Notes: generated from the sequence alone by a model not told the origin. 64,000 nucleotides of DNA from a virus (IMGVR_UViG_3300035670_000028:32001-96000), one strand, 5' to 3'. Shown: positions 22,911 through 48,187, counted from the first letter of the stretch. Numbers and translations: made by a program.

Positions 22911-23717
22911 GTGCCCGAAGGCAGCGAAGTCAAGCTGTTCGGAGAGTCCCTCGCGAAGGTTGTGTCTGGAAAGGACATTACTTCTGTTGATGTGATCTCC
23001 GGGCGGTACGCGAAGAGCGATGTTGAGGGTCTGGACCTGCTTAAGGCTCGACTTCCGACGAAGGTGGTGGGAATTGGAGTGCACGGCAAGTTCCTGTACT
23101 GGATTGTCACCAACGACGTCTTCATCTACAACACGCTGGGCATGACTGGCAGCTGGTCGACCCAGGAGACGAAGCACTCGCGCGTGGTGTTCCAGCTGAG
23201 TGACGGCGTGAGCGTCTACTTCAACGATCAGAGGAACTTTGGCACGCTCAAGATGGTTCCAGGACGAGACGAGCTCGTGAAGAAGCTGAAGTCGCTGGGC
23301 CCTGATATGCTCTCTGAGGCCGTTTCGGACGCGAGGTTCACAGAGAGCCTCATGAAGCGCCCAGAGTGGACGCTGGCAGAGGCAGTGATGGACCAGAGCC
23401 TGATCTCCGGCGTGGGCAACTACGTCAAGGCGGAGTCCCTCTACAGAGCACAGCTCTCTCCGCACAGGCAGGTGCAGTCGCTCTCGCCCACTGACATGTC
23501 CCGACTGCGCCAGAGCATTCAGCTCGTCCTCAACGAGGCGTACAGGAGGGGAGGTGCCTCGATTCAGACCTACCGTGACTTCGAGGGCAATGAGGGCGAA
23601 TACACCCAGAGGTTCCTCGTCTATAATAGGGACCAAGATCCAAACGGCAATAGTGTCGTGCGTGAGAAGACAGCAGACGGCAGGACCACGCACTGGGTTC
23701 CTGCAGTTCAAAAGTGA
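22911..23717 (+). CDS. Fpg/Nei DNA glycosylase (zincless finger)
   Basis: N-terminal PEG.E, HGKF, LGMTG, DQRNFG, LGPD, GVGNY..ESL, GRTTHW; no Cys finger. Confidence 0.9.
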   Translation: MPEGSEVKLFGESLAKVVSGKDITSVDVISGRYAKSDVEGLDLLKARLPTKVVGIGVHGKFLYWIVTNDVFIYNTLGMTGSWSTQETKHSRVVFQLSDGVSVYFNDQRNFGTLKMVPGRDELVKKLKSLGPDMLSEAVSDARFTESLMKRPEWTLAEAVMDQSLISGVGNYVKAESLYRAQLSPHRQVQSLSPTDMSRLRQSIQLVLNEAYRRGGASIQTYRDFEGNEGEYTQRFLVYNRDQDPNGNSVVREKTADGRTTHWVPAVQK

Positions 23718-23723
23718 GGCAAT

Positions 23724-23987
23724 ATGGAAAACGAGACCACATACACATTCTCCCCCGAGCTGCTCGCCACTGTGGCACAGCTCCTTCAGCTGGCGATCCT
23801 CACAGGCACTGACCTGTATGATCACCTCCAGACCCTACAGATGGTTGTCCAGGACGGAAAGCTGCACGTGAGCGCGGAGTTCAAGCAGAAGCTGGCCGAA
23901 GAGATCACTCGTCTCACGTCCCAGGCTGAGTCCTTGGCAACGCAGCAGCTCTCCTTTGGCTTCAAGCTCGACCAGAGCGGCAACTGA
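23724..23987 (+). CDS. Hypothetical protein
   Basis: ORF with RBS. Confidence 0.55.
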   Translation: MENETTYTFSPELLATVAQLLQLAILTGTDLYDHLQTLQMVVQDGKLHVSAEFKQKLAEEITRLTSQAESLATQQLSFGFKLDQSGN

Positions 23988-23995
23988 GGCGACAA

Positions 23996-24376
23996 ATGGA
24001 GTCGGATGATAAGCTTCGACACATGTTTGAGCTGCGTGAGCAGTTCATGCGTGCACTAAAGTCTCAGAAGTCGAGCATCTACCCAAAGTGGCCTGTCGAC
24101 CTCGCCGACAAGAAGTCACAGCAGGCCATTCGGGACACCGCGCTGAAGGGCGTCGAGGAGGTGTTCGAGGCGATGCAGCACTGCAAGAACTGGAAGCCCC
24201 ACCGGGTGACCGAGGATCGATCATTCGATCGTGAGAAGTTCCTCGAGGAGATGGTGGACGCCTTCAACTACTTCTTCTCCGTGCTCGTTCTCACTGGAGT
24301 GACCGCAGATGAGCTCCACGAGGCCTACGTCGAGAAGGATAGGATCATCCACGAGCGCCTGAAGTCGGGGTACTGA
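23996..24376 (+). CDS. All-alpha NTP pyrophosphatase (dimeric dUTPase/dCTPase/MazG-like)
   Basis: EEVFEA..NWKPH, EEMVDAFNYF. Confidence 0.75.
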   Translation: MESDDKLRHMFELREQFMRALKSQKSSIYPKWPVDLADKKSQQAIRDTALKGVEEVFEAMQHCKNWKPHRVTEDRSFDREKFLEEMVDAFNYFFSVLVLTGVTADELHEAYVEKDRIIHERLKSGY

Positions 24377-25329
24377 TGTCGTTCGAGACAATCTCAGGTG
24401 CCCTCACGCGCCAGAGGGCCTACTCTGACAAATTCTTCGAGCCCGGAGGCCTCTCTGTCAAGGAGAAGGAGGAGATCACAAAGACCTTCGCCCTCTCCTT
24501 GCACACCGAGGTCTCCGAGATCGCATCCGCGGTCAATTTTAAGGACCACCGGCGCGTCCAGGAGCCTGTCGACCACAATAAACTGCTGTACAAGTCTGTG
24601 GACGCCTTCAGGTACGTGCTCGCCCTGCTCAACCTGTGGGAAATTGACTCCCAGACCTTCATTCAGGCCTGCGAGGACAAGGACCTGTACCTCAACCGAC
24701 GCCACCTTGAGTCGGAGAGGACCCGCGGCGACCGTCCTGTTGTCATTTTTGACGCCGACGACGTGATCGCTGAGTTCCGGGCAGCATTTTTCGAGTGGCT
24801 GGACCAAAAGTGGGGCATTAAGGCTGACATTAACGACAAGCAGTACTACAGCGCAGCTGAGATGCAGAAGGGCGGAGTCGACTCTGAGACCGCGTTCAGC
24901 ACTTTCATCGCAGACGGGGGCTTTAGGACGCTCGGAGTCAATGGCCACGCCTTCGAGGCGATGCGAATGTGTCAGGAGGCGGGATTTTGGGTCCAGATTC
25001 TCACCGCGAGGCCCTCTGGGAACCTGAAGTGCTTCTACGACACTCACCGATGGCTCCACGAGGCCAAAATTCCCTACGACAGCGTCGCTTTCTCACCAGA
25101 GAAGTACTTGTGGCTCGTCGGACAGGACTTTTACTCAAAAAAGCAGCTCGTCTGCGTCGTGGATGACTCCTCCAAGCACGCGTCTGAGTTCGCCAAGCAC
25201 GGAGTGCCCGTAATTGTGCCCGTTAAGTCCTACAATGAGGACACGCAGGGCATTAAGGGCATCACTCGAGTGGACTTCTCACACGTCGGTGGCCGCGGGC
25301 TGTTCGACCTGATCAGAAGTCACGCCTGA
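24376..25329 (+). CDS. Degenerate NTP-pyrophosphatase domain fused to HAD 5'-nucleotidase-like domain
   Basis: TEVSE..NFKDH..SVDAFRY; FDADDVI, ILTARP, VVDDS. Confidence 0.7.
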   Translation: MSFETISGALTRQRAYSDKFFEPGGLSVKEKEEITKTFALSLHTEVSEIASAVNFKDHRRVQEPVDHNKLLYKSVDAFRYVLALLNLWEIDSQTFIQACEDKDLYLNRRHLESERTRGDRPVVIFDADDVIAEFRAAFFEWLDQKWGIKADINDKQYYSAAEMQKGGVDSETAFSTFIADGGFRTLGVNGHAFEAMRMCQEAGFWVQILTARPSGNLKCFYDTHRWLHEAKIPYDSVAFSPEKYLWLVGQDFYSKKQLVCVVDDSSKHASEFAKHGVPVIVPVKSYNEDTQGIKGITRVDFSHVGGRGLFDLIRSHA

Positions 25330-25400
25330 GTCCCGTTTCACTGTACATTGTCGCCTAGATTGTTAGATTTGACTGCCTCTCACGAAGGAAGGAATGTAGA

Positions 25401-26381
25401 ATGCCGCTGAATAAGGATTTGGAGCCCATTGAGCTTCCGATGGAGCTCAAGTTTGGTAGACCTGTCAAGACTGAGTACCTCAATGCCCTCGACGCGCTCA
25501 AGGTCGAGCTCGTGGACCACCCCACACGTCAACAGGCGTGGAATGTCGCGTGGCACTACGTCAAGGCGACGTGGGCCGATCGCCCGGACATCGATCCGTC
25601 TCGTGCGACAGAGCACGAGCTCTCCAAGAACCTCGAGGACGTGTTCGGCGGCAGGACCCTGCCCGCTCCGATGGAGTGCCTAGGCTTCACGTTCCGCCTC
25701 AGTGGCCTCTCCTTCCAGGATGTGACCCACATCATTCGCCACCGAGCTGGAACGTTCGCCGCGCAGTGCACAGGTGATCGCGACCTCCGCGACGATGCAG
25801 CAGTCATTCCTGAGCCCGTCCAGAACTCCCCCGAGTTCCTCGAGCGCTGGAAGCAGATCGTGGACGACGCGAAGGAGCTCTACGCCGACATGACCGACTC
25901 CAAGGTCGTCTCGATGATGGACGCTCGCCTCATCCTGCCGAAGTGCATGACCTCGTTCTACTACATGCGCCTGCCCCTCAAGGACCTCGTCGGGTTCATC
26001 TATCAGCGTAAAGATGTTGCAATCCAAACCGCCAGTGACAATATTCTTGCCGTTAAAATGGCTGTTGAAGTTGCAAAGGTCATTCCTGAGTTCACTTCTA
26101 TGATTGATTTTGATAAGCCTGACATGCATTTTGTAAAGACATTTAGAGTCAAGGACGGTGATAAGTGGGTTTCTAGAGGAACAAACTTGTATTGGCCTGC
26201 ACAGAAGAACGATATTTTCGAATATCACCCGAATGACACGATTTATCAGTCGACCAGAGAAGATCTCAATGGCACTGATGGTGTGGGTCCACAGAAGAAG
26301 TTCACAGAGCATTGGAACGCAGGCCTCGCTGAGTTCAATCAGATCAAGTCTGATTATAATGCCTGGCGTTCTCAAAAGTGA
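25401..26381 (+). CDS. Divergent ThyX-like flavin-dependent thymidylate synthase
   Basis: FTFRLSG, HIIRHRAGTFAAQCTGDR, DARLILP. Confidence 0.75.
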   Translation: MPLNKDLEPIELPMELKFGRPVKTEYLNALDALKVELVDHPTRQQAWNVAWHYVKATWADRPDIDPSRATEHELSKNLEDVFGGRTLPAPMECLGFTFRLSGLSFQDVTHIIRHRAGTFAAQCTGDRDLRDDAAVIPEPVQNSPEFLERWKQIVDDAKELYADMTDSKVVSMMDARLILPKCMTSFYYMRLPLKDLVGFIYQRKDVAIQTASDNILAVKMAVEVAKVIPEFTSMIDFDKPDMHFVKTFRVKDGDKWVSRGTNLYWPAQKNDIFEYHPNDTIYQSTREDLNGTDGVGPQKKFTEHWNAGLAEFNQIKSDYNAWRSQK

Positions 26382-26417
26382 TTAGTACTTTCTAGTACTA
26401 GAAGCATAGTTATCCTC

Positions 26418-26600
26418 ATGAAGCAAGAAAAGATCTCAATTGATATGGACACACATCGTCTTCTCAAAGTCTACTGTGCTGAGAGAGATTTAAAGATGGG
26501 TGCCTTTGTCGCGAGACTGATTCGAGAGAGGATTAGCGATGAACGAGAAAATTTGCGCCCAGTGCAAGACAAGATTTTTGCCAAAGAATCGATTAAGTAA
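26418..26600 (+). CDS. Ribbon-helix-helix DNA-binding protein
   Basis: KISIDMDTHRLLKVYCAERDLKMGAFVARLI. Confidence 0.65.
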   Translation: MKQEKISIDMDTHRLLKVYCAERDLKMGAFVARLIRERISDERENLRPVQDKIFAKESIK

Positions 26601-27435
26601 TAAGTCTGGTTTCTTCTTCTGTTCAAAAGAGTGCATTTATCTTGCACAAAAGAAGAACGGTGTCACGTATGAGCTTCGTCGAAAGAGATCGTTAGAAAAG
26701 TACGGTAAAGACTTTCCAATCTCTTGTGATGAGATCAAAGAAAAGCGCAAGAAGAATAATATTGAAAAGTATGGTGTTGCTAATACGTTTGAGCTTGATG
26801 CTGTTAAAGAGAAGACAAAGAAGACCACACGTGAGCGATATGGTGTCGATGTCTACTCACAAACCATAGAATTCAAGTCTAAAATTGAGGAAACAAATCT
26901 AAAGAGATTTGGGTACAAGTCTCCAATAGAAAATCCTGATATTCTCGCACAGCGCCGTCAAACAATGACAGACCGATATGGTGGACCATCAACTTTAGAG
27001 TCGCCTATTCTACGTGAAAAAATGGAAGCGACTTGTCGTGATTTGTTTGGAACATCGAATATAGTCATGTCACCGCAGTTTATTTCATCATCTATGGATA
27101 AGAAATTGCTAAAGACACACGGCAAGACATGGCAGCAGTACATAGATGATCTACCAGCTCTTCAGGATTATCGTCGTAAAGTTGAACACATTACACGGCA
27201 GCAAGCAGTTGAAACTTTGCCCTACTATGATAAATGGGGTGAATATCATCTTGATCACAAATTTTCTATTGCTGAAGGATTTAGGCAAGGGTTATCACCA
27301 GAAATCATTGGAAATATTGCAAATTTGGAATTTATTCCTGCCCACGAAAATATGAGTAAGCAGGATGATTGTTCAATTGACAAGCATAGTCTACTATTAG
27401 AAATTGAGAGGATGAAAGGTCATAACAATGAGTGA
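26539..27435 (+). mobile_element. Free-standing HNH homing endonuclease
   Basis: CxxC Zn finger, repeated (K/R)YG units, YHLDHKF..NL..HENMSK; AT-rich. Confidence 0.75.
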
Positions 27436-27901
27436 AAATAAGTTTGGACGTACTTTGAAGATGTATCTTGCCGCAGGCTGGTTCAATCCCGTTCAGGATG
27501 CTGAACTCACTAGACTTGAACAGATCATGGAGGCACGTAAGGACTGGATTGAGATGGCGTCTCCTCGTCGTATCTTCATCTGTCCGCCAAATGCTTCGCG
27601 CGAGGTTCAAGATGCGACATATCAGGGCAATCTGAAGCACATTCGAGAAGCAGATTTTCTTGTAGTCAATACGCGCGACAAGGATCTAGGGACTATTATG
27701 GAGTGTGGATATGCCACTGCTTTCGACAAGCACATCATCTACTTCTGTGCTGGACTTCCTGCCGGCGCAAAGTTCAACCTGATGTTGAGCAGGTCAGGTG
27801 CGCGTGTGTGCACGACCTTCGAGCAGCTTGAGGACTACCTGGATCGCTGCAAGGCGGCAGGCGAGATGCTGTACGAGCCCTACGACAAGGAAATTGAGTG
27901 A
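27428..27901 (+). CDS. Nucleoside 2-deoxyribosyltransferase / (d)NMP N-glycosidase family
   Basis: MYLAAGWF, ADFLVV, DLGTIMECGYA, NLML. Confidence 0.8.
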   Translation: MSENKFGRTLKMYLAAGWFNPVQDAELTRLEQIMEARKDWIEMASPRRIFICPPNASREVQDATYQGNLKHIREADFLVVNTRDKDLGTIMECGYATAFDKHIIYFCAGLPAGAKFNLMLSRSGARVCTTFEQLEDYLDRCKAAGEMLYEPYDKEIE

Positions 27902-28062
27902 GAAGGCTCCTGCTCGAGGATGTCCTCCTGATTGCTGCTCTCCAATCCTCTAGACCGAGTGACTGGCGGCACGCACTTCAGGAGGTGCCTCGGGAGGATG
28001 CCCTTTTGATTGCCAGGAAGAATGTCCTGGACTGGGTACCAAGCAAGGAGGAGGCGTCGTGA
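27898..28062 (+). CDS. Small hypothetical protein (54 aa)
   Basis: GTGA overlaps at both ends. Confidence 0.45.
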   Translation: MRRLLLEDVLLIAALQSSRPSDWRHALQEVPREDALLIARKNVLDWVPSKEEAS

Positions 28063-29036
28063 GAGTTCTAGTGACAGGCCACGCGGGTTTCATCGCCCGA
28101 AATCTGGTTGGAGCGTTCGGTCGACTGGGCCACACTGTGGTCGACGTCGCCTCCCGGACACTTGTTCGAAATAACAAGGGTGAGCCCTGCGTCCACAGGA
28201 ACAGCGAGTTCGCCTGGTGGTCGTACCTCGTCGACGAGCGGATCGACCTGGTGGTGCACAACGCTGCTGTGGTTGGCACCGATGTCGTTGCGCTCAGTCC
28301 TGAGGAGTCCACGCTGAGCAACGTGATGGGCACACACACTATTTGCCGTGCAGCGCGCAAGGCAAAGATCCCAGTGTGCTACATGGGCACGTCAGTCATC
28401 TACAACACGCCCAAGTATCAGCGTGAGCCGATCACCGAGCGCAGCGAGCAGCTTCCGGGCACCTTCTATGGCGCGCAGAAGCTCGCGTCGGAGCACATCG
28501 TCATGTCGACTGTTCCCGAGTGGCTCATCATGCGGCCGCTCTTCGCCTACGGTGGTGTCGGTGACATGAACTCCCTCGTCGCAAAGGGATTCTACGCCCT
28601 GCACAACGACCGAACAGGTGTGGACATGTTCCTCGATCCCCGCAAGAGCAAGGACTACATGCATGTGGAGGACTTCTGCGACGCCGTCGCTCTCGCCTGC
28701 GACAGGGGCCTGTGGTGCCAGGACTTCAACGTGTCCGCAGAGGAGCCGCTGGAGACAGGTCACATCGTGGACCTCATGTCGGAGGTCGCCGGCGATGACA
28801 TCGGACGGAGGCTCGTGTGGCGCCCGGAGACAGACTACCTCGGAAATCACCTCCTGTCATCCCAGAAGTTCCGAGATGCGACCGGGTGGAAACCTAGGTT
28901 GCCGTTCAGGGAGGGTCTCCGTCAGTCTTGGAGAAGCATCTGCAGTGGCTCTGGGGGCTATGATCCCCTCCAGCACCTGGACTCCGCCCGTGCTCGTGGT
29001 ACCGATCTCGTGGACTACTTCCCAAAGGCGAAGTGA
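28059..29036 (+). CDS. NAD-dependent epimerase/dehydratase (extended SDR)
   Basis: VTGHAGFIA, HNAA, TSVIY, YGAQK, DYMHVED. Confidence 0.9.
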   Translation: MRVLVTGHAGFIARNLVGAFGRLGHTVVDVASRTLVRNNKGEPCVHRNSEFAWWSYLVDERIDLVVHNAAVVGTDVVALSPEESTLSNVMGTHTICRAARKAKIPVCYMGTSVIYNTPKYQREPITERSEQLPGTFYGAQKLASEHIVMSTVPEWLIMRPLFAYGGVGDMNSLVAKGFYALHNDRTGVDMFLDPRKSKDYMHVEDFCDAVALACDRGLWCQDFNVSAEEPLETGHIVDLMSEVAGDDIGRRLVWRPETDYLGNHLLSSQKFRDATGWKPRLPFREGLRQSWRSICSGSGGYDPLQHLDSARARGTDLVDYFPKAK

Positions 29037-29140: not shown

Positions 29141-29503
29141 ATGAGGATCACAGAGGGACAGCTTCGTAGGATTATTCGACAGGAAGTGAAACGGCTTCAC
29201 GAAATGCCAGCTCGCCGCGGCGGTTCAACGTTGCGCGGCTTTAACAAAGTTTTTCTTGACGGCGACCCAGAATTTGCTGATTTTACAATGTCAGTTGCAA
29301 AAATGCTTGGTAAGCCTGTAACAGCGGTCAAGATGGTTTCTACTGAGGACGACAGCGACTATTATGATATGTACATTGAACAAATACAGGGTGAAACGCC
29401 TATAAGCGTGCCAGGATTTCCGGGTCAAGCTTCACAAGGGACACTTCAAGGAATGCCTGTAGTATTAACAAATGACATGGGTGCTGGCTTCATTTTCATG
29501 TGA
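29141..29503 (+). CDS. Tagged late protein
   Basis: MRITEGQLRRIIRQEV..LHE; ATACTTA at 29077. Confidence 0.65.
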   Translation: MRITEGQLRRIIRQEVKRLHEMPARRGGSTLRGFNKVFLDGDPEFADFTMSVAKMLGKPVTAVKMVSTEDDSDYYDMYIEQIQGETPISVPGFPGQASQGTLQGMPVVLTNDMGAGFIFM

Positions 29504-29532
29504 TTCTCTAGTCTCCACAAGTAAAATTGCAG

Positions 29533-29561
29533 TGTAAATCTGACCGCACGCAGCCTATAAT
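29533..29561 (+). promoter_or_regulatory. Sigma70-like promoter TGTAAA-N17-TATAAT (representative copy)
   Basis: Related copies at 2663, 25342, 31330, 31925, 33989, 37177, 43675, 47724, 63423, 63852. Confidence 0.75.
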
Positions 29562-29567
29562 GGTTGT

Positions 29568-29870
29568 ATGCGGTCAGACTGTTTAACAGACTTACCGAAG
29601 ACAGGTGACCTCGTTCGCGGCACTCGAGAGTTTGGGTCCTGCATCGAGGCCCAATTGTGGAACGAGAACTTTGTGATGTCGTACCCAGACGAGCCTTGGG
29701 ACACTGCGACTATTGCAGTGTATATTGAGCCGGTCTCCCGAGAGGAGCTTGGTGAGATTAGTCCAAGGGTTCCTCACAGTGGCCTTGGTCCGTTCCACCG
29801 GATCTTCTACAAGAATCGGGTGTGGCTTGTGTACGGCGATGATTCACTGGAAGCTGTGAAAGGAGAGTGA
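29568..29870 (+). CDS. KOW/SH3-like microprotein
   Basis: PKTGDLVR. Confidence 0.55.
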   Translation: MRSDCLTDLPKTGDLVRGTREFGSCIEAQLWNENFVMSYPDEPWDTATIAVYIEPVSREELGEISPRVPHSGLGPFHRIFYKNRVWLVYGDDSLEAVKGE

Positions 29871-30217
29871 GCGAGATGAGCGAGATTGAGAGTGCTGAGG
29901 CACCGGTGGAGAAGAGAATTACACAGGCCCTGATCGATAATGCCTTCAGCTGCCTCGATGGCCACGGGCGGCTAACCTATGCTAGGGATGAGTGCTGCAC
30001 GATCCAGCAGGTTCTGCGGGAGGCCCACGGTGTGCACCTCTCCCTGAACGAGTGCCGGCGCTTCTGGGAGTGGAGATCGGGGCTGTGGGATGCTTCCTTC
30101 CTCACGCTGGGAGGGGCGGATGAACCGGGCACCCGGAAGGAGATCCTCGAGTTCTTCACCGAGTGGCTGGATGAGCTGGATATCTGGGAGTGGAACACTG
30201 CGGAAGAGGAGGATTGA
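29867..30217 (+). CDS. Hypothetical protein
   Basis: GTGA coupling. Confidence 0.5.
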   Translation: MSEMSEIESAEAPVEKRITQALIDNAFSCLDGHGRLTYARDECCTIQQVLREAHGVHLSLNECRRFWEWRSGLWDASFLTLGGADEPGTRKEILEFFTEWLDELDIWEWNTAEEED

Positions 30218-30218
30218 G

Positions 30219-30677
30219 ATGATCAAGAAGAGGAAGGGCTGGTTCAGGCACATTAAGCCGAGCTCCCCGGTGTGCCCGAGGAAGCCGGAGAGGATGCTGA
30301 AGCGCGAGAGGCTAACGATCCTGTATGAACACTGCGGGAGCAGGATGAACCTATCAGAGATTCCCCTCCCCGAGGGGAAGGGCCTGGCTGATATCCAGCT
30401 GAGCGCTAGCGGGGATGAGGATGGTGATATCACCCTCGAGTTCTACACCCGGGAGGAGTACGAGGAGGAGAACCCCCACTACGAGCGCGAGATGAAGCAC
30501 TACAAGGCAGTGTACGCCAAGTACGAGCAGCTGAGGGATGAGTTCAAGGCCGAGCTAGCTGAGTGGAAGGCGTGGAATGCCGAGCAGGATGCTGCTGATG
30601 TGAAGGAGCGCCTCGAGGCTGCAGAGAGGCTGCTCCGCCAGCACGGCCGGCTCCCTGGAGGCCCGAGTGTGGGCTGA
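30219..30677 (+). CDS. Hypothetical protein, coiled-coil C-terminus
   Basis: RBS GAGGAGG. Confidence 0.5.
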   Translation: MIKKRKGWFRHIKPSSPVCPRKPERMLKRERLTILYEHCGSRMNLSEIPLPEGKGLADIQLSASGDEDGDITLEFYTREEYEEENPHYEREMKHYKAVYAKYEQLRDEFKAELAEWKAWNAEQDAADVKERLEAAERLLRQHGRLPGGPSVG

Positions 30678-30969
30678 TCCTGATCGGGCCATCCTAACCT
30701 ACCCACTCTTTGCGGGAGGCACCCTGGAGTTCGGGTGGGCCCGCTCCGGTGGCGGCATGAGCGTGGGCACGAATCCCCTCATGGCCCGCGTGCTAGTGCC
30801 ACCCTCTGGCGGCGAGTATCCCTCCGGCTGGTTCGTGGTGCAGGGCAAGCGCTCGCTCATCAAGGTGAAGGCCGAGTTCGATACCTACGGTGGTTTCATC
30901 CCAGATTGGCTCCGCGCAGATATGTTCGAGCACCACTACAACCTCCTCAGGATAGGCACCAGTGCGTGA
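30667..30969 (+). CDS. Hypothetical protein
   Basis: Overlapping ORF in array. Confidence 0.45.
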   Translation: MWADPDRAILTYPLFAGGTLEFGWARSGGGMSVGTNPLMARVLVPPSGGEYPSGWFVVQGKRSLIKVKAEFDTYGGFIPDWLRADMFEHHYNLLRIGTSA

Positions 30970-31051
30970 TCTGGCTCGCGAGCTGAGGAGGGGAGATCTC
31001 GTGCGGATCACGCGGTGCATGGTTAAGTTGCAGCGTGGGGATTCAACCTAA
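30962..31051 (+). pseudogene. Truncated GDLV microgene (29 aa)
   Basis: MRDLARELRRGDLVRITR.. closely matches the start of the 31422 gene; stop overlaps the late promoter. Confidence 0.55.
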
Positions 31052-31062
31052 TACTTATCACC

Positions 31063-31332
31063 ATGCGAATCACACTCAACGAGCTCCGCCTGATCATCAG
31101 GGAGGCGCTGGCTCAGCCCATGGAGTTCAAGCAGGCCGAGGAGCTCTACTCTGAACTGATCATGGGTGCCATGAGGGATAACCGCGGGAATGTTTCCGCC
31201 ATGCAGGCCGCCATGCGTGCCATCCCCGATCAGGTGCTCAAGCTCACCGGGTGGAGTGTGGAGGAGATCCAGGCAGGAACCGAGCGGGAAACCCGCGAGA
31301 GGATCGCGGCCATGAAGCAGGGCCGGCCCTGA
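31063..31332 (+). CDS. Tagged late protein
   Basis: MRITLNELRLIIREAL; ATACTTA at 31051. Confidence 0.65.
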   Translation: MRITLNELRLIIREALAQPMEFKQAEELYSELIMGAMRDNRGNVSAMQAAMRAIPDQVLKLTGWSVEEIQAGTERETRERIAAMKQGRP

Positions 31333-31421
31333 ACATTCCCGCCCACCCGGCTACAATTAGGCCAGGATGAGCAAGATTATAATTCCAGAGGATTACTCGG
31401 CCCCAACCCGGATGAGCACCA

Positions 31422-31712
31422 GTGCGTGATCTGCAGGCAGGAGATCTCGTGCGGATCACCCGGCAGCCAACTGATGATCCCCGCGCTGGGTGCTCCCACT
31501 TCTGGTGCGAGGAGGCTGGGCTATCCCTCCCCATCCCCTGGGGCACCGGCTGCCTGGTGGTTGATGTTGATGGCAGGAGCTCGCTGGGTAACGAGCTCAT
31601 TCACTTCATACATGAGGAGCGCGTGTTCGCGATCACCAAGTACCAGGTTGACTACTCGCACCCAGCGGGCCGAGTGGTGAGGCACCTGTGGTGCGAGCTG
31701 GTGGGAGGCTGA
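31422..31712 (+). CDS. KOW/SH3-like microprotein
   Basis: LQAGDLVRIT. Confidence 0.6.
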   Translation: MRDLQAGDLVRITRQPTDDPRAGCSHFWCEEAGLSLPIPWGTGCLVVDVDGRSSLGNELIHFIHEERVFAITKYQVDYSHPAGRVVRHLWCELVGG

Positions 31713-31715
31713 GAG

Positions 31716-31952: not shown

Positions 31953-31959
31953 TGGTACC

Positions 31960-37152: not shown

Positions 37153-37211
37153 TGAGCCTCCTGTGATCTTCGTCCGTGTAAATGATGCTCTGGTCAGAGT
37201 ATAATTGGATC

Positions 37212-40200
37212 ATGAGCATCATTGATGTTAGGCCTCCCACTCGATTCACTGGTTTACATGCCCACTCAAGTTTCTCAAATTTTGACGGACTTGCATATCC
37301 AAAGTCACACATTGATTTTATCACCTCCGATGCCCAGGGCGGTGACTCCTGGGCGCTGACTGATCACGGCAACGGATCCGGACTCGCCCACGCTCGTTCA
37401 GCCGCTGTCAAGGTGCAGAAGTCAGGAAAGAAGTACCGCCAGCTGTACGGCGTCGAGTTCTACTTCGTTCCCTCCCTCGAGGAGTGGCAGCAGTCCATGG
37501 ACCGCCACCAGCAGTCCATCAAGGACGCAAAGTCCGCCAAGGAGATGCAGGAGATCGCCGAGGAGCCCACAGTCGTCAAGCCTCCCGACGAGGAGGACGA
37601 GCAGGGTGGCCACGTCGTCGAGAACGAGGAGGAGACGAAGGAGTCCAAGCCCGGCAAGCCCGAGTGGAAGAAGTACTACCACCTCGTCGTCGTGGCCAAG
37701 AATCGGGTCGGCCTCGGAAACCTGTTCACCCTCGTCAAGAAGTCGTTCAAGCACGGCTTCTACCGGTTCCCACGCATCGACTTCAAGATGCTCAAGGAGC
37801 ACGGCGAGGGACTCGTGGTGTCGACAGCGTGCGTCGGTGGCCTTGCATCCGGCCTCATCTACAGCGAGTTTCCCGACAGGAAGTTCTCTGAGCTGAGCCC
37901 ATCGCTGTTCACCGGTGAGGCAGCGGAGGCAGCGGTTCGGTCCATTCGAGGCAGGCTCGACAACATGGTGGACCGCTTCGTCGATGCCGTCGGCCGCGAC
38001 AACTTCTTCCTCGAGCTCCAGTTTAACGACCTCCCCGCTCAGCACCTCACGAACAGGTGCCTGATCGACGCGTCCGTCAGGAACGGCATTCCCCTCGTGG
38101 CGACGGCTGACTCCCACTTCCCCTCGCCTGACAAGTGGCAGGCGCGCGAGCTCTACAAGAAGCTCGGGTGGATTGGTGCCAAGCTCGACAAGACCATGCT
38201 CCCCAAGCTGGAGGACATGAAGACGATGCTGTATCCCAAGAACGCCACCCAGATGTGGGACGAGTTCAAGAAGGGCTACGAGCAGCACGACTTCTACCAC
38301 GGTCACGAGGAGCTCGTCCGCGACGCGATCGAGCGGACCCACGACATCGCCTGGGAGAAGTGCGAGGACACGTGGATCGACGTCTCAGGCAAGCTGCCCA
38401 AGTTCGGCACTCCCGAGAAGACGGCATTCTCAATGCTGTCAGACCTCGTGAAGGAGGGCCTCGTTCGCGAGGGTCTCGCTGACAAGCCTGAGTACGTCGC
38501 CCGCGCGAAGGAGGAGCTGTCTGACATCAAGTACCTCGGACACGAGGCATACTTCCTCGCGATGCAGAAGATCTTTCATCGTGCTGAGACACAGACACTG
38601 CTAGGGCCCGGTCGTGGATCGGGTGCAGGTTCACTGGTAAACTTCCTGCTAGGCATTACTCAGATTGACCCTATTCCGTATGGATTGCTGTGGAGCCGAT
38701 TCTTGGGAAGACATCGCTGTCTTCAAAAGGATACACTTGTTCTATCAGAGTCGGGCACAAAACCTATTAGTCGGCTGAATGTGGGTGAAAAAGTCCTCAC
38801 ATCAGGTGGAACATATGAGCGTGTTATTGACAAAGAAGATGATGTAAAGCACGATATTAACGCTCTCATCAAGACGTCCAAAGACAGTTTTTCATGTTCA
38901 CCGAATCATAGATGGCTTGTTAGACGCGATGGCGAAGTGCAAGAAGTGCTAACAACAGACCTCAGAAAAGGTGACAAGCTGCTGTTCATCAAGCAAAAGT
39001 CTCCGTGTGAGTTCGAAGAGGTCGAAATCGATGAAGTGGTCTTTAGTGATAGGCTCGAAGAGTATGTCGATATTGAGGTTGAGAATGACCACACGTTCTT
39101 TGTTTCGACCGCCGGTGACAACTTTGCGCTGACACACAACACTTCTTGGCCTGACATTGACACTGACGCGGGTGATCGCGACGTCCTCATCGACGCAGCC
39201 CGCGACCTATTCGGCGACGATGCCGTCATTCCGGTGTCCAACTTCAACACGCTCAAGCTCAAGTCCCTCATCAAGGACATCGCCAAGTTCTACGACGTTC
39301 CATTCGACGAGGTCAATGCCATGACTGGTCCACTGCAGGACGAGGTGATGGCCTTCGCCAAGGATGAGAACCAGGAGAAGTCCGTCTTCGTCCTCAAGCA
39401 CGAGGACTGCATGAAGTACTCCGAGGGGTACCGCAACTTCATGGAGAAGTATCCTGATGTTGCGGCGCATGTTGAGACCCTCTTCATGGAGAACCGCTCC
39501 ATCGGTCGACACGCCGGCGGCGTCATTATCGCTCCCGCCGAGGACCTCGAGCGGACAATGCCCATCATCAGTGTCCGCGGTGAGCTGCAGACCCCGTGGA
39601 CCGAGGGCATGAACTTCAGAAACCTTGAGGACAACGGCTTCCTAAAGTTCGACTTCCTCGGCCTCACGCTGCTCAAGGACGTCGAGAACTGCATCGCCCG
39701 AATCCTCAAGCGGCAGGGCAACCCGCGGCCCACGTTCGCGGACGTGAAGGCGTTCTTCGACAAGCACCTTAACTGCAGGTACGTCCTGCAGGACGACCCA
39801 AAGGTCTGGGAGCACGTCTATCACAATGCCCGATTTACAGGCGTATTCCAGTTCACTGCCGCGGGAGCCCGAAAGTTCTGCCTCGACGCGAAGCCGAGCT
39901 CAATCGAGGAGCTGGCGGCACTCACTGCGATCTACCGACCTGGTCCCCTCAAGGCGAACGTCCACAGGAAGTATGTCGAGGCGAAGAATAACGCCTCGCT
40001 CATCAAGTACGAGCACCCCGTGATCGAGAAGGTGCTCGGGCCTTCCTACAACTTCGTCGTTTTCCAGGAGCAGTTCATGACCCTGGCAGTCGAGCTAGCT
40101 GGATTCTCCCCCGGTGAGTCCGATCAGCTTCGAAAGACCCTGGTCAAGAAGTCCCTTGACACGATCGGCAAGAAGGGCGACGAGCGGGAGGCGGCCCGAC

Positions 40201-41279
40201 AGAAGTTCATCAAGGGCGCCAAGGAGCTCCACGGCGTCCCGGAGGACATCACTTCCGCCCTGTGGTCGACGATCGAAGCATTCTCGGTCTACGGCTTCAA
40301 CAAGTCACACGCTGTCGCCTACGCGATTGACTCCTACTACGCGGCGTGGCTTCACACCCACTACGAGACTGACTGGCTGGCCACGATCCTGCAGTCCGAG
40401 AACGGCAACCCCGACGGCCTCAAGAAGGCTATCACTGAGATCAAGGCGTACGGCTACCGGTTCCAGGAGGCAGACATTAACTACTCAGGCGATGTATGGA
40501 ACTACTCCGAGGAGCTGGAGGCCTTCGTGCCGCCCCTCTCCTCCATCAAGGGTGTTGGTGACACTGCCATGCAGGAGATCATGCACAATCGTCCGTACAA
40601 GTCGCTGGACGACCTGCTCTACGATCCCGACGGCGAGTGGCGGCACTCCAAGGTGAACAAGACAGCCCTTCGTGCCCTGTGCATGATCGAGGCACTGGGG
40701 TCACTGCAGGAGCTCAAGGACGGCACGATCCGAAACCACAGGCAGCTGCTGGCAATCCTCAGCGACGACAAGAACTACGAGACCCTGCGCAAGGGCAAGT
40801 GGGGCATGACCAAGTCCCAGGTTAAGAAGGCGCTGAAGGACGGCGGCGATCTCGCCACAATCACGACCCGCCTGATCGAGCAGTACCACGGCCTGCCCGA
40901 CTGGACGCGGACTGAGAAGATCATGAACCACGTGGAGATGACCTCGGACGCACCGCAGGACCTCGTGTTCCCGGCGGGCTTCGTCAAGCGTGTGACCGAG
41001 AAGGACGTGCCCTCAGTCTTCACGATCCCTGGTGGAGGCAAGGGTGTGGGCTGGTTCTGCGCCGCAGAGTCCATCCAGAAGACGACCAAGAAGGGCAAGG
41101 CGTTCCTGCGAATCCGCGCGATCGACAGCGACAACAACTCAGGGTGGATCCGCGTGTGGGGCAAGTTCGAGCAGCTTCCTGAGCCTTATACGCTGTGGAT
41201 CGGTGAGGTGGATAATGATGCGAACTGGGGCATGGCAACCACCTCGTGGAAGCTCAAGCAGATCAAGGCTTTCGAGTGA
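37212..41279 (+). CDS. dnaE: DNA polymerase III alpha subunit, intein-containing
   Basis: PHP motifs HAHS/TDHG/DSH, GRGSGAGS, PDIDTD, HAGG, KFDFLGL, YGFNKSHAVAY; start inferred from promoter 37177-37205. Confidence 0.95.
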   Translation: MSIIDVRPPTRFTGLHAHSSFSNFDGLAYPKSHIDFITSDAQGGDSWALTDHGNGSGLAHARSAAVKVQKSGKKYRQLYGVEFYFVPSLEEWQQSMDRHQQSIKDAKSAKEMQEIAEEPTVVKPPDEEDEQGGHVVENEEETKESKPGKPEWKKYYHLVVVAKNRVGLGNLFTLVKKSFKHGFYRFPRIDFKMLKEHGEGLVVSTACVGGLASGLIYSEFPDRKFSELSPSLFTGEAAEAAVRSIRGRLDNMVDRFVDAVGRDNFFLELQFNDLPAQHLTNRCLIDASVRNGIPLVATADSHFPSPDKWQARELYKKLGWIGAKLDKTMLPKLEDMKTMLYPKNATQMWDEFKKGYEQHDFYHGHEELVRDAIERTHDIAWEKCEDTWIDVSGKLPKFGTPEKTAFSMLSDLVKEGLVREGLADKPEYVARAKEELSDIKYLGHEAYFLAMQKIFHRAETQTLLGPGRGSGAGSLVNFLLGITQIDPIPYGLLWSRFLGRHRCLQKDTLVLSESGTKPISRLNVGEKVLTSGGTYERVIDKEDDVKHDINALIKTSKDSFSCSPNHRWLVRRDGEVQEVLTTDLRKGDKLLFIKQKSPCEFEEVEIDEVVFSDRLEEYVDIEVENDHTFFVSTAGDNFALTHNTSWPDIDTDAGDRDVLIDAARDLFGDDAVIPVSNFNTLKLKSLIKDIAKFYDVPFDEVNAMTGPLQDEVMAFAKDENQEKSVFVLKHEDCMKYSEGYRNFMEKYPDVAAHVETLFMENRSIGRHAGGVIIAPAEDLERTMPIISVRGELQTPWTEGMNFRNLEDNGFLKFDFLGLTLLKDVENCIARILKRQGNPRPTFADVKAFFDKHLNCRYVLQDDPKVWEHVYHNARFTGVFQFTAAGARKFCLDAKPSSIEELAALTAIYRPGPLKANVHRKYVEAKNNASLIKYEHPVIEKVLGPSYNFVVFQEQFMTLAVELAGFSPGESDQLRKTLVKKSLDTIGKKGDEREAARQKFIKGAKELHGVPEDITSALWSTIEAFSVYGFNKSHAVAYAIDSYYAAWLHTHYETDWLATILQSENGNPDGLKKAITEIKAYGYRFQEADINYSGDVWNYSEELEAFVPPLSSIKGVGDTAMQEIMHNRPYKSLDDLLYDPDGEWRHSKVNKTALRALCMIEALGSLQELKDGTIRNHRQLLAILSDDKNYETLRKGKWGMTKSQVKKALKDGGDLATITTRLIEQYHGLPDWTRTEKIMNHVEMTSDAPQDLVFPAGFVKRVTEKDVPSVFTIPGGGKGVGWFCAAESIQKTTKKGKAFLRIRAIDSDNNSGWIRVWGKFEQLPEPYTLWIGEVDNDANWGMATTSWKLKQIKAFE
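38718..39140 (+). mobile_element. Mini-intein (141 aa) in DnaE
   Basis: CLQKDTLV start, SPNHRW block B, YVDIEV..HTFF block F, THN end then T; AT-rich; no LAGLIDADG. Confidence 0.9.
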
Positions 41280-43727: not shown

Positions 43728-44663
43728 ATGCTTCAAATCAGGAACGTAACGCTAGAGGGTCCGGACTGCAGTGGTAAGTCGACCCTCTATAACAACATTC
43801 ACAAGGCGAGCAAGTTCAGGTGGAACATCCAGGACCGATCGCAGCTCAGCATGCTGTGCTACGCCCGACAGTTCGGTCGCGGTGACAGTGAGGTGGAGCG
43901 GTGGCGGCGCGAGCTCAGGTCCTTCCTCCTCGACCTGAACAACCGCCTCATTGTGCTGCTTCCGGACTTCCAGGTGATCGCGCAGCGGCTTTCCGAGCGT
44001 GGGGATGATGTTCAGGACATTCAGAGCCTGAAGACGCTGCACAGCATCTTCGAGGAGGAGGTGACCCGCCTAGGAAATCCTCCCAACCTCCTCGTGTTTC
44101 GAGAGGCGCTTCCGGTGGAGCAGCTCAGAGACGCGTGCGTCAAGTGGCTTAGCATGGCCGAGCTCCTCCAGCCGCTCGGTGCAGCACGCGAGGTGCTCGC
44201 CCTCGCGGAGTCCATGCCCAACCGCGAGGCAGTGGGGTGCAGGTTTCGCCTGACACTCGACCCAACGTCGCTGTCTGTGCCCGATGCCTCCATTCTCAGA
44301 CACCCACCCGAGGAGGTCTACTACGCGAAGATCCTATCAGGTGTCCTGCAGAATATTGATGATGAGCTCAAGGGCAAGAATGAGTACGGAGTGAAGCAGA
44401 ACCAGTATTACACTCGTCGCTTCATCTTCACGCAGGACTCTTGCATCTCTCTCGTTCACACAATTCTCAGGGGCGACAACCTAAACATGCGAGTGTATTG
44501 TCGCTCCTCCAACGCGAAGGACGTGTTCAGCTACGATGTGCAGTTCATCTGCTACCTGTTTAGCAGGATCTACGCTCGACTCGCCTCGCACAGCGGCTGG
44601 TCCTATCCTCCTCGCGGAAACTTCACCGTCGACGTGGAGCTCGGCTCCGCCCACGTGCTCTGA
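43728..44663 (+). CDS. dNMP kinase fused to thymidylate-synthase-fold domain
   Basis: LEGPDCSGKST, QDRS, RGDD; C-terminal DSCISLVH..VYCRSSN..FSYD..GSAH. Confidence 0.75.
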   Translation: MLQIRNVTLEGPDCSGKSTLYNNIHKASKFRWNIQDRSQLSMLCYARQFGRGDSEVERWRRELRSFLLDLNNRLIVLLPDFQVIAQRLSERGDDVQDIQSLKTLHSIFEEEVTRLGNPPNLLVFREALPVEQLRDACVKWLSMAELLQPLGAAREVLALAESMPNREAVGCRFRLTLDPTSLSVPDASILRHPPEEVYYAKILSGVLQNIDDELKGKNEYGVKQNQYYTRRFIFTQDSCISLVHTILRGDNLNMRVYCRSSNAKDVFSYDVQFICYLFSRIYARLASHSGWSYPPRGNFTVDVELGSAHVL

Positions 44664-44668: not shown

Positions 44669-45460
44669 ATGACTATCAACCTAGAGAATCGCGACTGCCT
44701 CGAGTATCTGGCCTCGCTGCCTGATGAGTCCATTGACATCGCACTACTTGATCCGCCCTACTTCATTGGCCACGACTCATGGGACAAGCAGTGGCCCACT
44801 GAGGAGAAGTACATGAAGTGGTGCGAGGCGTGGACTCGAGAGTCCGTTCGAGTCCTGCGCAGGAATCGCCCCATCTGCGTCTGGGGCACGATGAAGACTG
44901 ACACCTTCCTGCGGTACAAGCTCAACGTGCTCAACAAGGTCCCAGGCATCTACCCGCAGAATGAGATCGTGTGGTCCTACAACTGGGGCGGCAGGTCCAA
45001 GGGCAACTTCGCCCGAAAGCACGAGTACATGTGGGTGTACAGCAAGGGAGAGCTTCACTTCAACGCCGACGATGTCCGCATCGAGAGGAAGCAGAAGGTG
45101 AACATCAGGACGGGTCAGCCGTTTGCCCAGGGCACAATTCCCACCTGCGTGTGGGAGAAGAACAACCACACGACCTCTAAGGAGTACTGCGCGTGGCACA
45201 CGGCGCAGAAGCCCATCTCCCTGCTCGAGCGCATCATCAGGGCGTACACCAATCCGGGTGAGACAGTGATGGACTGCTTCAGTGGCGCGGGCTCCACAAT
45301 GATCGCCGCCCACAATGTGGGCCGCAACTTCACAGGCACCGAGCTGTACAGGGACTACTACGAGCAGTCGAAGGATCGATTTAAGACTCTCACAGGCTCA
45401 TCCGTGCTTGACTCAAAGGACTCAGCGCCCGGGGCGCAATATTTAACGGAGGAGACATGA
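44669..45460 (+). CDS. N6-A/N4-C DNA methyltransferase (beta class)
   Basis: DPPY, HTAQKP, DCFSGAGST. Confidence 0.9.
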   Translation: MTINLENRDCLEYLASLPDESIDIALLDPPYFIGHDSWDKQWPTEEKYMKWCEAWTRESVRVLRRNRPICVWGTMKTDTFLRYKLNVLNKVPGIYPQNEIVWSYNWGGRSKGNFARKHEYMWVYSKGELHFNADDVRIERKQKVNIRTGQPFAQGTIPTCVWEKNNHTTSKEYCAWHTAQKPISLLERIIRAYTNPGETVMDCFSGAGSTMIAAHNVGRNFTGTELYRDYYEQSKDRFKTLTGSSVLDSKDSAPGAQYLTEET

Positions 45461-46026
45461 GCAAGATGACGCAGCGGGATCCGGAGTTCATAATGTTCGT
45501 CGGGCCCATGTTCGGCTCGAAGACTTCAAGACTTCTTGCCACAGTCGAGCGCTATCGCTACCAGAGCAGGGGCATCCTCGTGTTCAAGCCGAGGATGGAC
45601 AATCGGTATGAGAGCGAGAAGATCGTCACCCACACGGGACTCAGCGTCAGTGCCCAGTGTGTGGGATACGGTCGTGAGATCATCGAGCAGGTCCTCGCGG
45701 CTCCCGACTGTGAGGTAGTTGCCGTGGACGAGGCGTTCATGATCGAGGGATCGGCCGAGGCTTGCCTGTCTCTGTTCAGGCGTGGCAAGACGATCGTGGT
45801 GTCGTCCATTCAGCTCTCAGCCTCAGGACTTCCATTCGACGAGGTGAAGGACATGATGCCCTACGCCACGCGGATCGAGGTGTGCTCGGCGGTCTGCCCA
45901 ATCACGGGCAGGGACGCCTACTACACAGAGAGAAAGAGGAGCGACCTTGGCGAGATTGCAGTGGGCGGCAAGGAGATGTACTCACCCGTCTGCTGGGAGC
46001 ACGCCAAGTTTATGCGAGGAGTGTGA
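45457..46026 (+). CDS. tdk: Thymidine kinase
   Basis: GPMFGSKT, KPRMDNRY, VDEA, VGGKEMY..VC. Confidence 0.9.
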   Translation: MSKMTQRDPEFIMFVGPMFGSKTSRLLATVERYRYQSRGILVFKPRMDNRYESEKIVTHTGLSVSAQCVGYGREIIEQVLAAPDCEVVAVDEAFMIEGSAEACLSLFRRGKTIVVSSIQLSASGLPFDEVKDMMPYATRIEVCSAVCPITGRDAYYTERKRSDLGEIAVGGKEMYSPVCWEHAKFMRGV

Positions 46027-47758: not shown

Positions 47759-48187
47759 ATGAGCGAGCGACCCACGTGGGACAGCGTCTGGATGGACACT
47801 GCCCGAACAATCTCACGCCGATCCTACGACCCACGACACCAGGTGGGGGCCATCGTGGTGACATCAGACAATACCCAGGTGCTCTCCGTTGGCTACAACG
47901 GTAATTACACAGGGGGCCCAAATGAGGTTGAATCTGCGAACCCTGGGGAGTCCGGAATGATACACAGCGAGATCAACGCGCTGCTGAAGATGGACTACAA
48001 CAACCCGAAGCGCAAGGTGATGTACGTCACATTGAGCCCTTGCCGTATGTGCGCGAAGGCGATCGTCAACGCCGGGATCAGCGAGGTCGTGTACGGCGAG
48101 GAGTACAGGGACGCCTCCGGCCTGGATATACTGCGGTCCGCAGGAGTGACAGTGAGGCCTATCAACGAGCCTTCAACTGGGTCGTGA
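47759..48187 (+). CDS. dCMP deaminase
   Basis: VGYNG, HSEINA, LSPCRMCAK. Confidence 0.9.
   Translation: MSERPTWDSVWMDTARTISRRSYDPRHQVGAIVVTSDNTQVLSVGYNGNYTGGPNEVESANPGESGMIHSEINALLKMDYNNPKRKVMYVTLSPCRMCAKAIVNAGISEVVYGEEYRDASGLDILRSAGVTVRPINEPSTGS

Follow-up and report, generated by a model that had tools for sequence, protein, structure and literature searches.

A conserved phage gene module with a rewired ThyX paralogue and a kinase/mini-ThyA fusion: a candidate pathway to a modified pyrimidine

The stretch of DNA analysed here (the window, 64,000 nucleotides) comprises bases 32001-96000 of IMGVR_UViG_3300035670_000028, a 147-kb IMG/VR record (CheckV completeness 44%) of a large uncultured freshwater phage. 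The genes at window positions 22911-29036 are all on the + strand and densely packed; among them is ThyXl, a divergent paralogue of the thymidylate synthase (TS) ThyX. The original prediction, made from the window alone, had read six genes at 23996-29036 as a putative novel DNA base-modification cluster, and open reading frame (ORF) calls together with Pfam and PHROG matches place all six on that strand and at those positions. The module begins upstream of them, with an Fpg/Nei-like gene and a gene for a protein of 87 amino acids (aa). No near-identical phage was returned for the region by megablast against 50,697 phage records. We lean towards the view that the module supplies a modified pyrimidine for replication of the phage DNA. 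Its genes, and those elsewhere in the record that bear on its function, are as follows.

22911..23717, + strand: Fpg/Nei-like DNA glycosylase/lyase, 268 aa (Pfam Fapy_DNA_glyco, H2TH, Fapy_DNA_glyco_C)
23724..23987, + strand: conserved small protein, 87 aa, family c5, a recurrent family directly 5' of the MazG-like gene
23996..24376, + strand: g1, all-alpha deoxynucleoside triphosphate (dNTP) pyrophosphatase of the MazG/dimeric-dUTPase type, 126 aa (dUTPase_2, PHROG 12184)
24376..25329, + strand: g2, degenerate MazG-like N-domain (1-115) plus HAD 5'(3')-deoxyribonucleotidase-type domain (120-291) (hhalign, family-profile PDB matches)
25401..26381, + strand: g3, ThyXl, divergent ThyX-fold flavoprotein paralogue, 326 aa (Thy1, E 2.7e-14)
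26539..27435, + strand: g4, HNH-type homing endonuclease (DUF7487, PHROG 3339)
27428..27901, + strand: g5, protein of the nucleoside 2-deoxyribosyltransferase (NDT) type, 157 aa (Nuc_deoxyrib_tr, E 2.7e-13)
28059..29036, + strand: g6, extended short-chain dehydrogenase/reductase (SDR), NDP-sugar epimerase/dehydratase-like, 325 aa (Epimerase, E 1.9e-26)
37182..41279, + strand: DnaE-type DNA polymerase III alpha (PHP, DNA_pol3_alpha, finger and HHH_6 domains)
43728..44663, + strand: kinase/mini-ThyA fusion, family c22 (AlphaFold2 model, Foldseek, profile match to T4 dCMP hydroxymethylase)
45457..46026, + strand: thymidine kinase (TK), TK1 type (Pfam TK, E 2.7e-32)
47759..48187, + strand: dCMP/cytidine deaminase-family protein (dCMP_cyt_deam_1, E 5.9e-22)
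G000:C1:128810-129574, outside the window, strand not stated: canonical ThyX (E 5e-50, RHR-x7-S-x-R-Y)

A scan of viral contigs with ThyXl yielded 110 relatives, 80 of which were kept for comparison of their loci. The proteins of the window were found by tblastn in most of them (of the 80 loci, 77 have NDT, 70 MazG, 68 the HAD fusion, 63 SDR and 45 Fpg), with NDT directly after ThyXl in all 77, and the order MazG-HAD-ThyXl-NDT-...-SDR is maintained while ThyXl identity drops to 54%. The gene cluster is a conserved module and not a chance juxtaposition.

ThyXl was described in the original prediction as a divergent ThyX, and it deserves the name: the fold is that of ThyX, the equivalog score lies far under its cut-off and the substrate loop has been exchanged. 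A Foldseek search with its AlphaFold2 model (pLDDT 95.7) returned ThyX and PolB structures only (E ~1e-10, target-normalised TM-score up to 0.79), and hhalign relates it to the canonical ThyX of phages at 97%. With 53.9 bits for the Pfam Thy1 domain (cut-off 24.8), membership is assigned at the family level only; the thyX equivalog TIGR02170 scores 30.8 bits, under its cut-off of 87.9. Across 61 sequences the RHR motif is kept, with R113 invariant and H114 and R115 nearly so, and R176 and R203 are invariant as well; we take R113/R115, R176 and R203 to occupy the positions of R78/R80, R147 and R174 in Thermotoga maritima ThyX. The ThyX loop RHR-x7-S-x-R-Y is not kept and is replaced by QC[TS]GD[RK]D, with a Cys at the Ser position (or four residues beyond) in 49 of the 61 sequences and no subsequent Arg-Tyr pair; the His53 position is also lost. 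This new motif is conserved throughout a family reaching down to 22% identity. With ThyX and the UMP/dUMP methylase PolB, ThyXl shares the fold, the RHR motif and the two downstream arginines, but it differs from them in the Ser-x-Arg-Tyr loop, the His53 position and terminal extensions (~60 N-terminal and ~90 C-terminal residues relative to ThyX). Among 1.84 billion representative proteins, searched exhaustively and without a profile, only 298 relatives of ThyXl came up at E up to 1e-3, and in the Atlas its matches were confined to clusters labelled viral hypothetical or 'FAD-dependent thymidylate synthase family'.

ThyXl coexists with a canonical ThyX in the same record, ~70 kb from the module. 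Both copies are present in 10 of 13 large relatives, including a complete 284-kb genome, and the three large relatives with ThyXl only are fragments ~50% complete. ThyXl is a true paralogue of ThyX and, on its conserved residues, is predicted to have been neofunctionalised, or rewired; uracil and cytosine are not separable from the sequence as its substrate. In many marine relatives the canonical ThyX lies only three or four genes upstream of MazG. One canonical and one divergent ThyX-family paralogue in a single large genome are also a feature of Bacillus phage SP-15, whose two Thy1-family proteins are gp9, a proposed TS, and gp130, a proposed 5-hydroxymethyl-dUMP synthase (PMC5977210). The divergent copies of the two phages are not close relatives, however, and the role of gp130 is a hypothesis. 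SP-15, YerA41 and Carin-5 were all considered as sources of close ThyXl relatives and rejected, as none gave a tblastn match to ThyXl even at E up to 1. A literature search for a published, characterised ThyX paralogue in phage DNA modification found the SP-15 hypothesis only.

The second TS-type enzyme lies outside the interval first described and was missed by the original prediction. The N-domain of the c22 fusion (~1-147) has thymidylate kinase (TMPK) signatures and a P-loop fold of the TMPK/deoxynucleoside kinase (dNK) type; residues 1-150 give, by VIA, a Z of 14.5 to YorR and of 13-14 to dAK and TMK. In a Foldseek search the AlphaFold2 model of the fusion (pLDDT 91.7) has as its top match the phage HY126 dCMP hydroxylase AfhB (9iqu, E 1.9e-6), followed by T4 dCMP hydroxymethylase (dCH), TS and MilA; the alignments with AfhB and T4 dCH cover ~200 columns, and the C-domain, the mini-ThyA or mini-TS domain, has just ~165-185 residues. 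The best PDB match of the C-domain profile is T4 dCH (E 1.2e-3). The invariant C239, R259-S260 and D270 of the fusion correspond to C148, R168-S169 and D179 of T4 dCH, and an invariant residue also falls on His216. An Asp at the ThyA Asn177 position is an established cytosine-selecting switch (PMC13326640). Of 14 related records 11 have the fusion, at a distance of 7-17 kb from ThyXl, and it is missing only where the contig ends beside ThyXl; a tblastn search of the mini-TS domain against phages gave no match. Judged by its residues and its model, the fusion is the strongest candidate for the base-modifying synthase.

The first two of the six genes are predicted to act on nucleotides. g1 matches dUTPase_2 (E 2.4e-5) and PHROG 12184, a nucleotide pyrophosphohydrolase (E 2e-17), and its metal ligands ExxE...EExxD (E55, E58, E84, E85 and D88) are invariant among 19 relatives. 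The g1 stop codon overlaps the start of g2 (TGATG), and the N-domain of g2 is a paralogue of g1 (family-versus-family hhalign 97.7%) in which the metal motif is mostly lost, with only E45 and D76 invariant; this domain may bind rather than cleave. In the HAD domain motifs I-IV are intact, motif I reading DxDDVL; D126, D128, D129, T210, K243, D263 and D264 are invariant, and V130 is invariant or nearly so. A PDB search with the single g2 sequence gave noise only, and relatives emerged with the family profile: 3bwv, a putative 5'(3')-deoxyribonucleotidase (E 1.4e-4), mdN, and the Campylobacter jejuni dUTPase 1w2y (E 8e-4). The Pfam NT5C model scores 19.7 bits on g2, under its cut-off of 24.8. 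The pyrophosphatase-HAD fusion proposed earlier does exist, but most of the metal ligands of its pyrophosphatase domain are gone.

g5 was previously likened to DNPH1 and MilB, members of the NDT family that hydrolyse hydroxymethyl-pyrimidine nucleotides, and this comparison is not borne out. The g5 family profile finds the nucleoside transferase 6evs (E 2.2e-13) and the purine deoxyribosyltransferase (PDT) 1s2d (E 4.6e-7) in the PDB; at E up to 1 it lists NDT and PDT chains and no DNPH1 chain. Y13, P46, N68, D86, E92 and N117 are invariant. The Glu nucleophile in the motif G-T-I-x-E-x-G-Y aligns to Glu98 of 1f8x, and its supporting Tyr (Y13) and the water-excluding Pro (P46) are kept. D86 (in K-D-x-G) and N117 (in F-N-L-M) align to D92 and N123 of 1f8x, the pair that holds the 5'-OH in the Lactobacillus leichmannii enzyme. 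The Asp of the catalytic triad (D72) is not kept, an invariant Asn (N68) standing in its place as in TbPDT and DmtZ. The dNMP hydrolases and DmtZ lack the 5'-OH-binding Asp and Asn and have small uncharged residues instead (PMC12884076); the phosphate pocket of DNPH1, MilB and BlsM is not found in g5, where Asp and Asn are retained. g5 is predicted to be a transferase-type NDT acting at the nucleoside level. Such a transferase beside a 5'-deoxynucleotidase, with TK downstream, would make biochemical sense, and a DNPH1/MilB-type role would not fit. A related pairing is known from PurZ0 Z-genome phages, in which a dNTPase and an NDT-family enzyme (DutZ and DmtZ) remove dATP (PMC12884076). The genetic coupling of a dNTP pyrophosphatase to an NDT-family enzyme with Asn for the triad Asp is common to those phages and the present module, but DmtZ acts on dAMP without the 5'-OH-binding Asp and Asn, both of which g5 has. 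A tblastn comparison of g5 with the proteins of Ghobes and Wayne showed no similarity.

The original prediction allowed for a sugar-linked pyrimidine made with the help of the SDR g6, and it noted that no glycosyltransferase (GT) was visible in the window. The latter observation extends to the whole 147-kb record, 44% complete, in which searches with PF00534 and PF00535 found no GT1 or GT2 and no phage DNA glycosyltransferase as in T4-type glucosylated or RB69-type arabinosylated DNA was found; the proposed sugar link is not supported. g6 matches Epimerase, as well as RmlD_sub_bind and GDP_Man_Dehyd, its best PDB match is the GalE-like 3ehe (E 1.9e-12), and the SDR motifs (N-terminal TG-x-GFI, GT-x-VIY and Y-x-x-x-K) are conserved over 52 sequences. 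It carries no diagnostic subfamily signal and is a generic relative of NDP-sugar epimerases and dehydratases. No SDR is annotated in the examined stretches of the module versions of Geobacillus phage GR1 and of L101; we regard the SDR, like the Fpg/Nei-like glycosylase, as a lineage-specific accessory. Clusters of GT1 and GT2 genes occur in related large phages at G001:C1:124-150 kb, G002:C1:203-213 kb and G003:C1:154-172 kb, ~100 kb from the module; they may serve other glycans.

Versions of the same set of functions occur in unrelated phages. The cultured Geobacillus phage GR1 (79 kb; host G. stearothermophilus ATCC 10149) was the sole full-length cultured relative in a tblastn search against phages, with a ThyXl 47% identical to that of the window. 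Its module combines an NDT (40% identical to g5) and an HD YfbR-like 5'-deoxynucleotidase with a MazG-type dUTPase, a PHP/Pol III alpha gene, a TMPK-like P-loop protein and a flavoprotein of the nitroreductase family, and no ThyX or ThyA besides ThyXl was found in GR1. The C-domain of the fusion is homologous to a small GR1 gene that overlaps the stop codon of the GR1 ThyXl gene, and because of this overlap ThyXl and the mini-TS domain may form a physical pair. One GR1 gene is annotated as a glycosyltransferase; the annotation was not confirmed, as it matches no Pfam family, and it has no homologue in the present record. In Streptococcus phage GXN1 an NDT and HD pair stands beside a weak Thy1 relative, and no further ThyX or ThyA was found. 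On a PolB-encoding phage contig, NDT and a TMPK-like kinase accompany a ThyXl that is fused to a weakly GT2-like N-terminus (PF00535 just under cut-off). A mini-TS domain was considered for this N-terminus (protein P0027) and rejected at an hhalign probability of 0.3%; the region is weakly GT2-like instead, with a DxD motif. Since the nucleotidase is a HAD enzyme here and a non-homologous HD enzyme elsewhere, selection appears to have acted on the pathway and not through inheritance of a gene block.

At the upstream edge of the module, the Fpg/Nei-like gene starts with GTG at 22911 after the ribosome-binding site AAGGAGG and gives an N-terminus Met-Pro-Glu; a longer ORF from 22827 is probably not the one used. 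The protein has the N-terminal Pro-Glu, the H2TH domain and the C-terminal zinc-finger domain of the Fpg/Nei family, and its score for TIGR00577 (fpg), 168.8 bits, is under the cut-off of 203. Where the gene occurs in the related loci it lies either upstream of MazG or downstream of NDT. 5-Hydroxypyrimidines are excised by Fpg, Nei and Nth, and it is a speculation that this protein might police 5-hydroxypyrimidines in the phage DNA. The family of the 87-aa protein lies immediately 5' of MazG in 51 related loci, and the window copy was tied to it by tblastn; no Pfam or PHROG match was found for the protein, and an Atlas search returned viral hypothetical clusters only.

The cluster is interrupted by the HNH endonuclease g4, as had been noted from the window. 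g4 matches DUF7487 (E 1.2e-24) and PHROG 3339, a homing endonuclease family; its GC content is 38% against 50-61% for the flanking genes, and an endonuclease is found at the ThyXl-NDT junction in 4 of 81 copies (three of the 80 related loci and the window). Low GC and rarity at this site mark g4 as a recent mobile insertion. A 60-aa ORF with a ribbon-helix-helix-like look (ISIDMDTHRLLKVYCAERD...) at window 26418-26600 (+) overlaps the start of g4 and probably belongs to the mobile element, because it lies within the low-GC insert. P0020 (515 aa), a ThyXl relative, has a C-terminal HNH/His-Me endonuclease domain, which suggests repeated homing-endonuclease traffic at the ThyXl locus.

Three further genes lie downstream in the window.

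44669-45460, + strand: N6/N4 DNA methyltransferase (PF01555, E 6e-43)
45947-46864, + strand: DHH/DHHA1 phosphoesterase, conserved downstream of TK (domain match)
50239-50937, + strand: Fe/Mn superoxide-dismutase C-domain protein (domain match)

Clustering of ORFs gives an ancestral layout of ribonucleotide reductase (RNR), ClpP, canonical ThyX, a small protein, MazG, HAD, ThyXl, NDT and SDR, followed by a DnaE-type Pol III alpha, a c22 protein of 303-327 aa, sometimes a second SDR, and families of 188 aa and 302 aa. The last two correspond to the TK and DHH genes of the window by position and size; the 188-aa family (c45), which follows c22 in the relatives, is equated with TK on these two grounds only. 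The window departs from this layout at three points, namely the endonuclease, a block of small genes of ~8 kb between SDR and dnaE, and the DNA methylase after c22. The closest relatives have the order NDT-SDR-PolIIIalpha-kinase/TS fusion, so that the module is wrapped around Pol III alpha. SDR and dnaE adjoin in these relatives where the window has its small-gene block (29141-37150), and the slot of the methyltransferase, between the fusion and TK, holds a second SDR or is empty. A 218-aa family, c14 (for example L058:2124-2780), separates MazG from the HAD fusion in over 20 marine relatives and is not in the window; it gives a very weak argininosuccinate synthase match only. GAC and GTC are not depleted in the module (43 per kb together, against 32 across the whole window).

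The nearest precedent is pre-replicative cytosine replacement in T-even phages, RB69, DLP3 and HY126, whose set comprises the gp56 dCTPase, the gp42 dCMP hydroxymethylase or a dCMP 5-hydroxylase, the gp1 dNMP kinase, the dCMP deaminase cd and td, and flavin-dependent dCMP 5-hydroxylation has been demonstrated for ThyA homologues (PMC13326640). The present phage shares with these an all-alpha dNTP pyrophosphatase, a ThyA-superfamily domain with Cys nucleophile and cytosine-type Asp whose closest structures are AfhB and T4 dCH, a nucleotide kinase of its own and a dCMP deaminase, and it likewise keeps a genuine TS apart from these. It differs in that its TS-like domain is much shorter, invisible to PF00303 and fused to a kinase, in that the genuine TS is ThyX and not ThyA, and in that a ThyX paralogue, a 5'-nucleotidase and an NDT, which T-even phages are not known to have, belong to the module. 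No glycosyltransferase was found in the record. Phages with 5-hydroxymethyluracil (hmU), such as SPO1, phi-e and those of the PBS2 type, use a dTTPase/dUTPase and a dTMP 5'-nucleotidase for pool control. There, as here, a pyrophosphatase followed by a 5'-deoxynucleotidase would bring a pyrimidine dNTP down to the nucleoside, the two being fused here in one protein; but those phages are not known to have a TS, whereas this clade retains its canonical ThyX, and the pyrophosphatase domain of the g2 fusion has a degenerate metal motif.

We propose, at somewhat better than even confidence, that the module makes a non-canonical 5-substituted pyrimidine dNTP before replication, for the phage DnaE-type polymerase, and removes or recycles the canonical competitor. 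We infer all steps of this pathway from family membership and conserved residues. At first, g1 would cut a pyrimidine dNTP to the dNMP, as T4 gp56 does. ThyXl, with its FAD and phosphate arginines and its new substrate loop, would act on a pyrimidine nucleotide, and the mini-ThyA domain, with the catalytic Cys and the cytosine-selecting Asp, would act as a second rewired synthase on a pyrimidine nucleotide, whose substrate or product the fused TMPK/dNK-type kinase would phosphorylate. In parallel, the HAD 5'(3')-deoxyribonucleotidase of g2 would convert dNMP to deoxynucleoside, the transferase-type NDT would shift the deoxyribose onto another base, and TK or the fused kinase would re-phosphorylate the product, and the deoxyribose of the discarded nucleotide would in this way be reused; dTMP would still come from the canonical ThyX, encoded elsewhere in the genome. 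Most probably the modified base is a cytosine derivative (of the 5-hydroxy-, 5-hydroxymethyl- or 5-methyl-type) and/or a partial replacement of thymine arising from ThyXl; the likeliest single product is a cytosine derivative from the mini-ThyA domain. ThyXl would then make a second modified pyrimidine (for example of the hmU type, compare SP-15 gp130) or cooperate with the mini-TS domain. The modified-pyrimidine pathway of the original prediction survives in its core, a conserved module in which a neofunctionalised TS-type enzyme stands with dNTP-destroying enzymes while a canonical ThyX coexists; the glycosidase role of the NDT and the sugar link find no support. Because a neofunctionalised TS-type enzyme is paired with enzymes that destroy canonical dNTPs, the base-replacement logic would be that of T4. 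A bolder version of this proposal is possible though doubtful: that ThyXl is the first non-methylating enzyme of the ThyX fold, a flavin-dependent pyrimidine C5 hydroxymethylase or hydroxylase, and is partnered with the kinase-fused mini-ThyA dCMP enzyme to make an undescribed DNA pyrimidine. Many aquatic jumbo phages would then contain this base, and a DnaE-type polymerase dedicated to the task would copy it.

Several points weigh against base modification or speak for ordinary nucleotide salvage and pool balancing, with virion DNA free of any non-canonical base. Host dNTPs and dNMPs would in that case be converted to deoxynucleosides, subjected to a base swap by NDT and re-phosphorylated by TK and the TMPK-like kinase, with ThyXl as a second TS (using another reductant or tolerating O2 better) and the mini-TS as a regulatory nucleotide-binding domain. 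Every component has a housekeeping counterpart (dUTPase, nucleotidase, NDT, TK, dCMP deaminase, TMPK and ThyX), so that salvage alone fits the gene list; RNR, TK, dCMP deaminase and canonical ThyX are nearby, and the nucleoside-transferase pocket of g5 is typical of salvage enzymes. ThyXl keeps RHR and the two further arginines, residues that in ThyX touch the uracil carbonyls and the phosphate, and could still make dTMP; in GR1 and GXN1, where no second ThyX or ThyA was found, TS activity could depend on the ThyX-like protein alone. The mini-TS domain lacks approximately the N-terminal third of ThyA, PF00303 (Thymidylat_synt) finds nothing in the record, the domain being seen by profile and fold comparison only, and it might merely bind nucleotide. 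The ThyA Asp169 position does not reveal its chemistry: proven 5-hydroxy-dCMP synthases have Asn there (PMC13326640), and in the fusion family five members, the window copy included, have this Asn and nine have Asp. The lack of GT1 and GT2 described above belongs on the same side. On the other hand, in a redundant TS one would expect neither the loss of the dUMP loop Ser-x-Arg-Tyr and of the His53 position nor the fixation of a new invariant motif across so deep a family, and many relatives have a canonical ThyX a few genes away; the mini-TS domain retains the catalytic Cys beyond its binding residues, one phage has ThyXl joined to a GT-A-like domain, and in GR1 the gene annotated as a glycosyltransferase is close to ThyXl. 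We hold salvage alone, the main rival, to be unlikely.

A sugar-linked pyrimidine, for which a DNPH1/MilB-type NDT would hydrolyse (hydroxymethyl)pyrimidine dNMPs and the SDR would make an NDP-sugar, is improbable. Phage NDT-family hydrolases paired with dNTPases do exist (DmtZ and DutZ, PMC12884076), and g5 has Asn at the triad Asp position like DmtZ, but its 5'-OH-binding Asp and Asn, where the hydrolases and DmtZ have small uncharged residues, and a profile that finds NDT and PDT structures and no DNPH1 argue for a transferase, and the neighbouring 5'-nucleotidase would yield nucleosides and not dNMPs. The SDR lies downstream in 63 of 80 loci, with a second one after the kinase/TS fusion in several relatives, and 5-hydroxycytosine of the RB69 type is arabinosylated via phage UDP-sugar enzymes; yet no diagnostic signal assigns the SDR to a subfamily, the record yielded no GT, and the GT1/GT2 clusters of the three related large genomes are ~100 kb off. 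MilA with MilB releases a free modified base. A product that is not put into DNA, with dNTP destruction and a free modified nucleoside, nucleotide or base serving pool manipulation against nucleotide-depletion or -sensing defences of the host, or host starvation, could be read into the formal resemblance of the ThyXl-NDT pairing to MilA-MilB, MilA being among the structural matches of the fusion, and into three successive catabolic activities (pyrophosphatase, nucleotidase and glycosyl transfer). This is very improbable given the tight linkage to a replicative polymerase and to kinases able to return the product to the triphosphate; no phage precedent is known, and no defence-related matches turned up, although no search was aimed at them.

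Replacement of DNA bases is a major means of counter-defence for phages and a source of enzymes for biotechnology. To our knowledge, all characterised routes of pyrimidine modification begin with ThyA-fold enzymes, and a nucleoside-level recycling branch of nucleotidase and NDT is not part of any described modification pathway. The logic of the proposed pathway is known and its parts are new: the rewired ThyX and the kinase/mini-ThyA fusion would be two uncharacterised enzyme types. The module is carried by well over 100 uncultured aquatic, thermophile-associated and other phages, and its core set by the cultured phage GR1. Modified DNA in this abundant clade, if confirmed, would have consequences for metagenomic recovery, sequencing bias and host-range inference in these phages.

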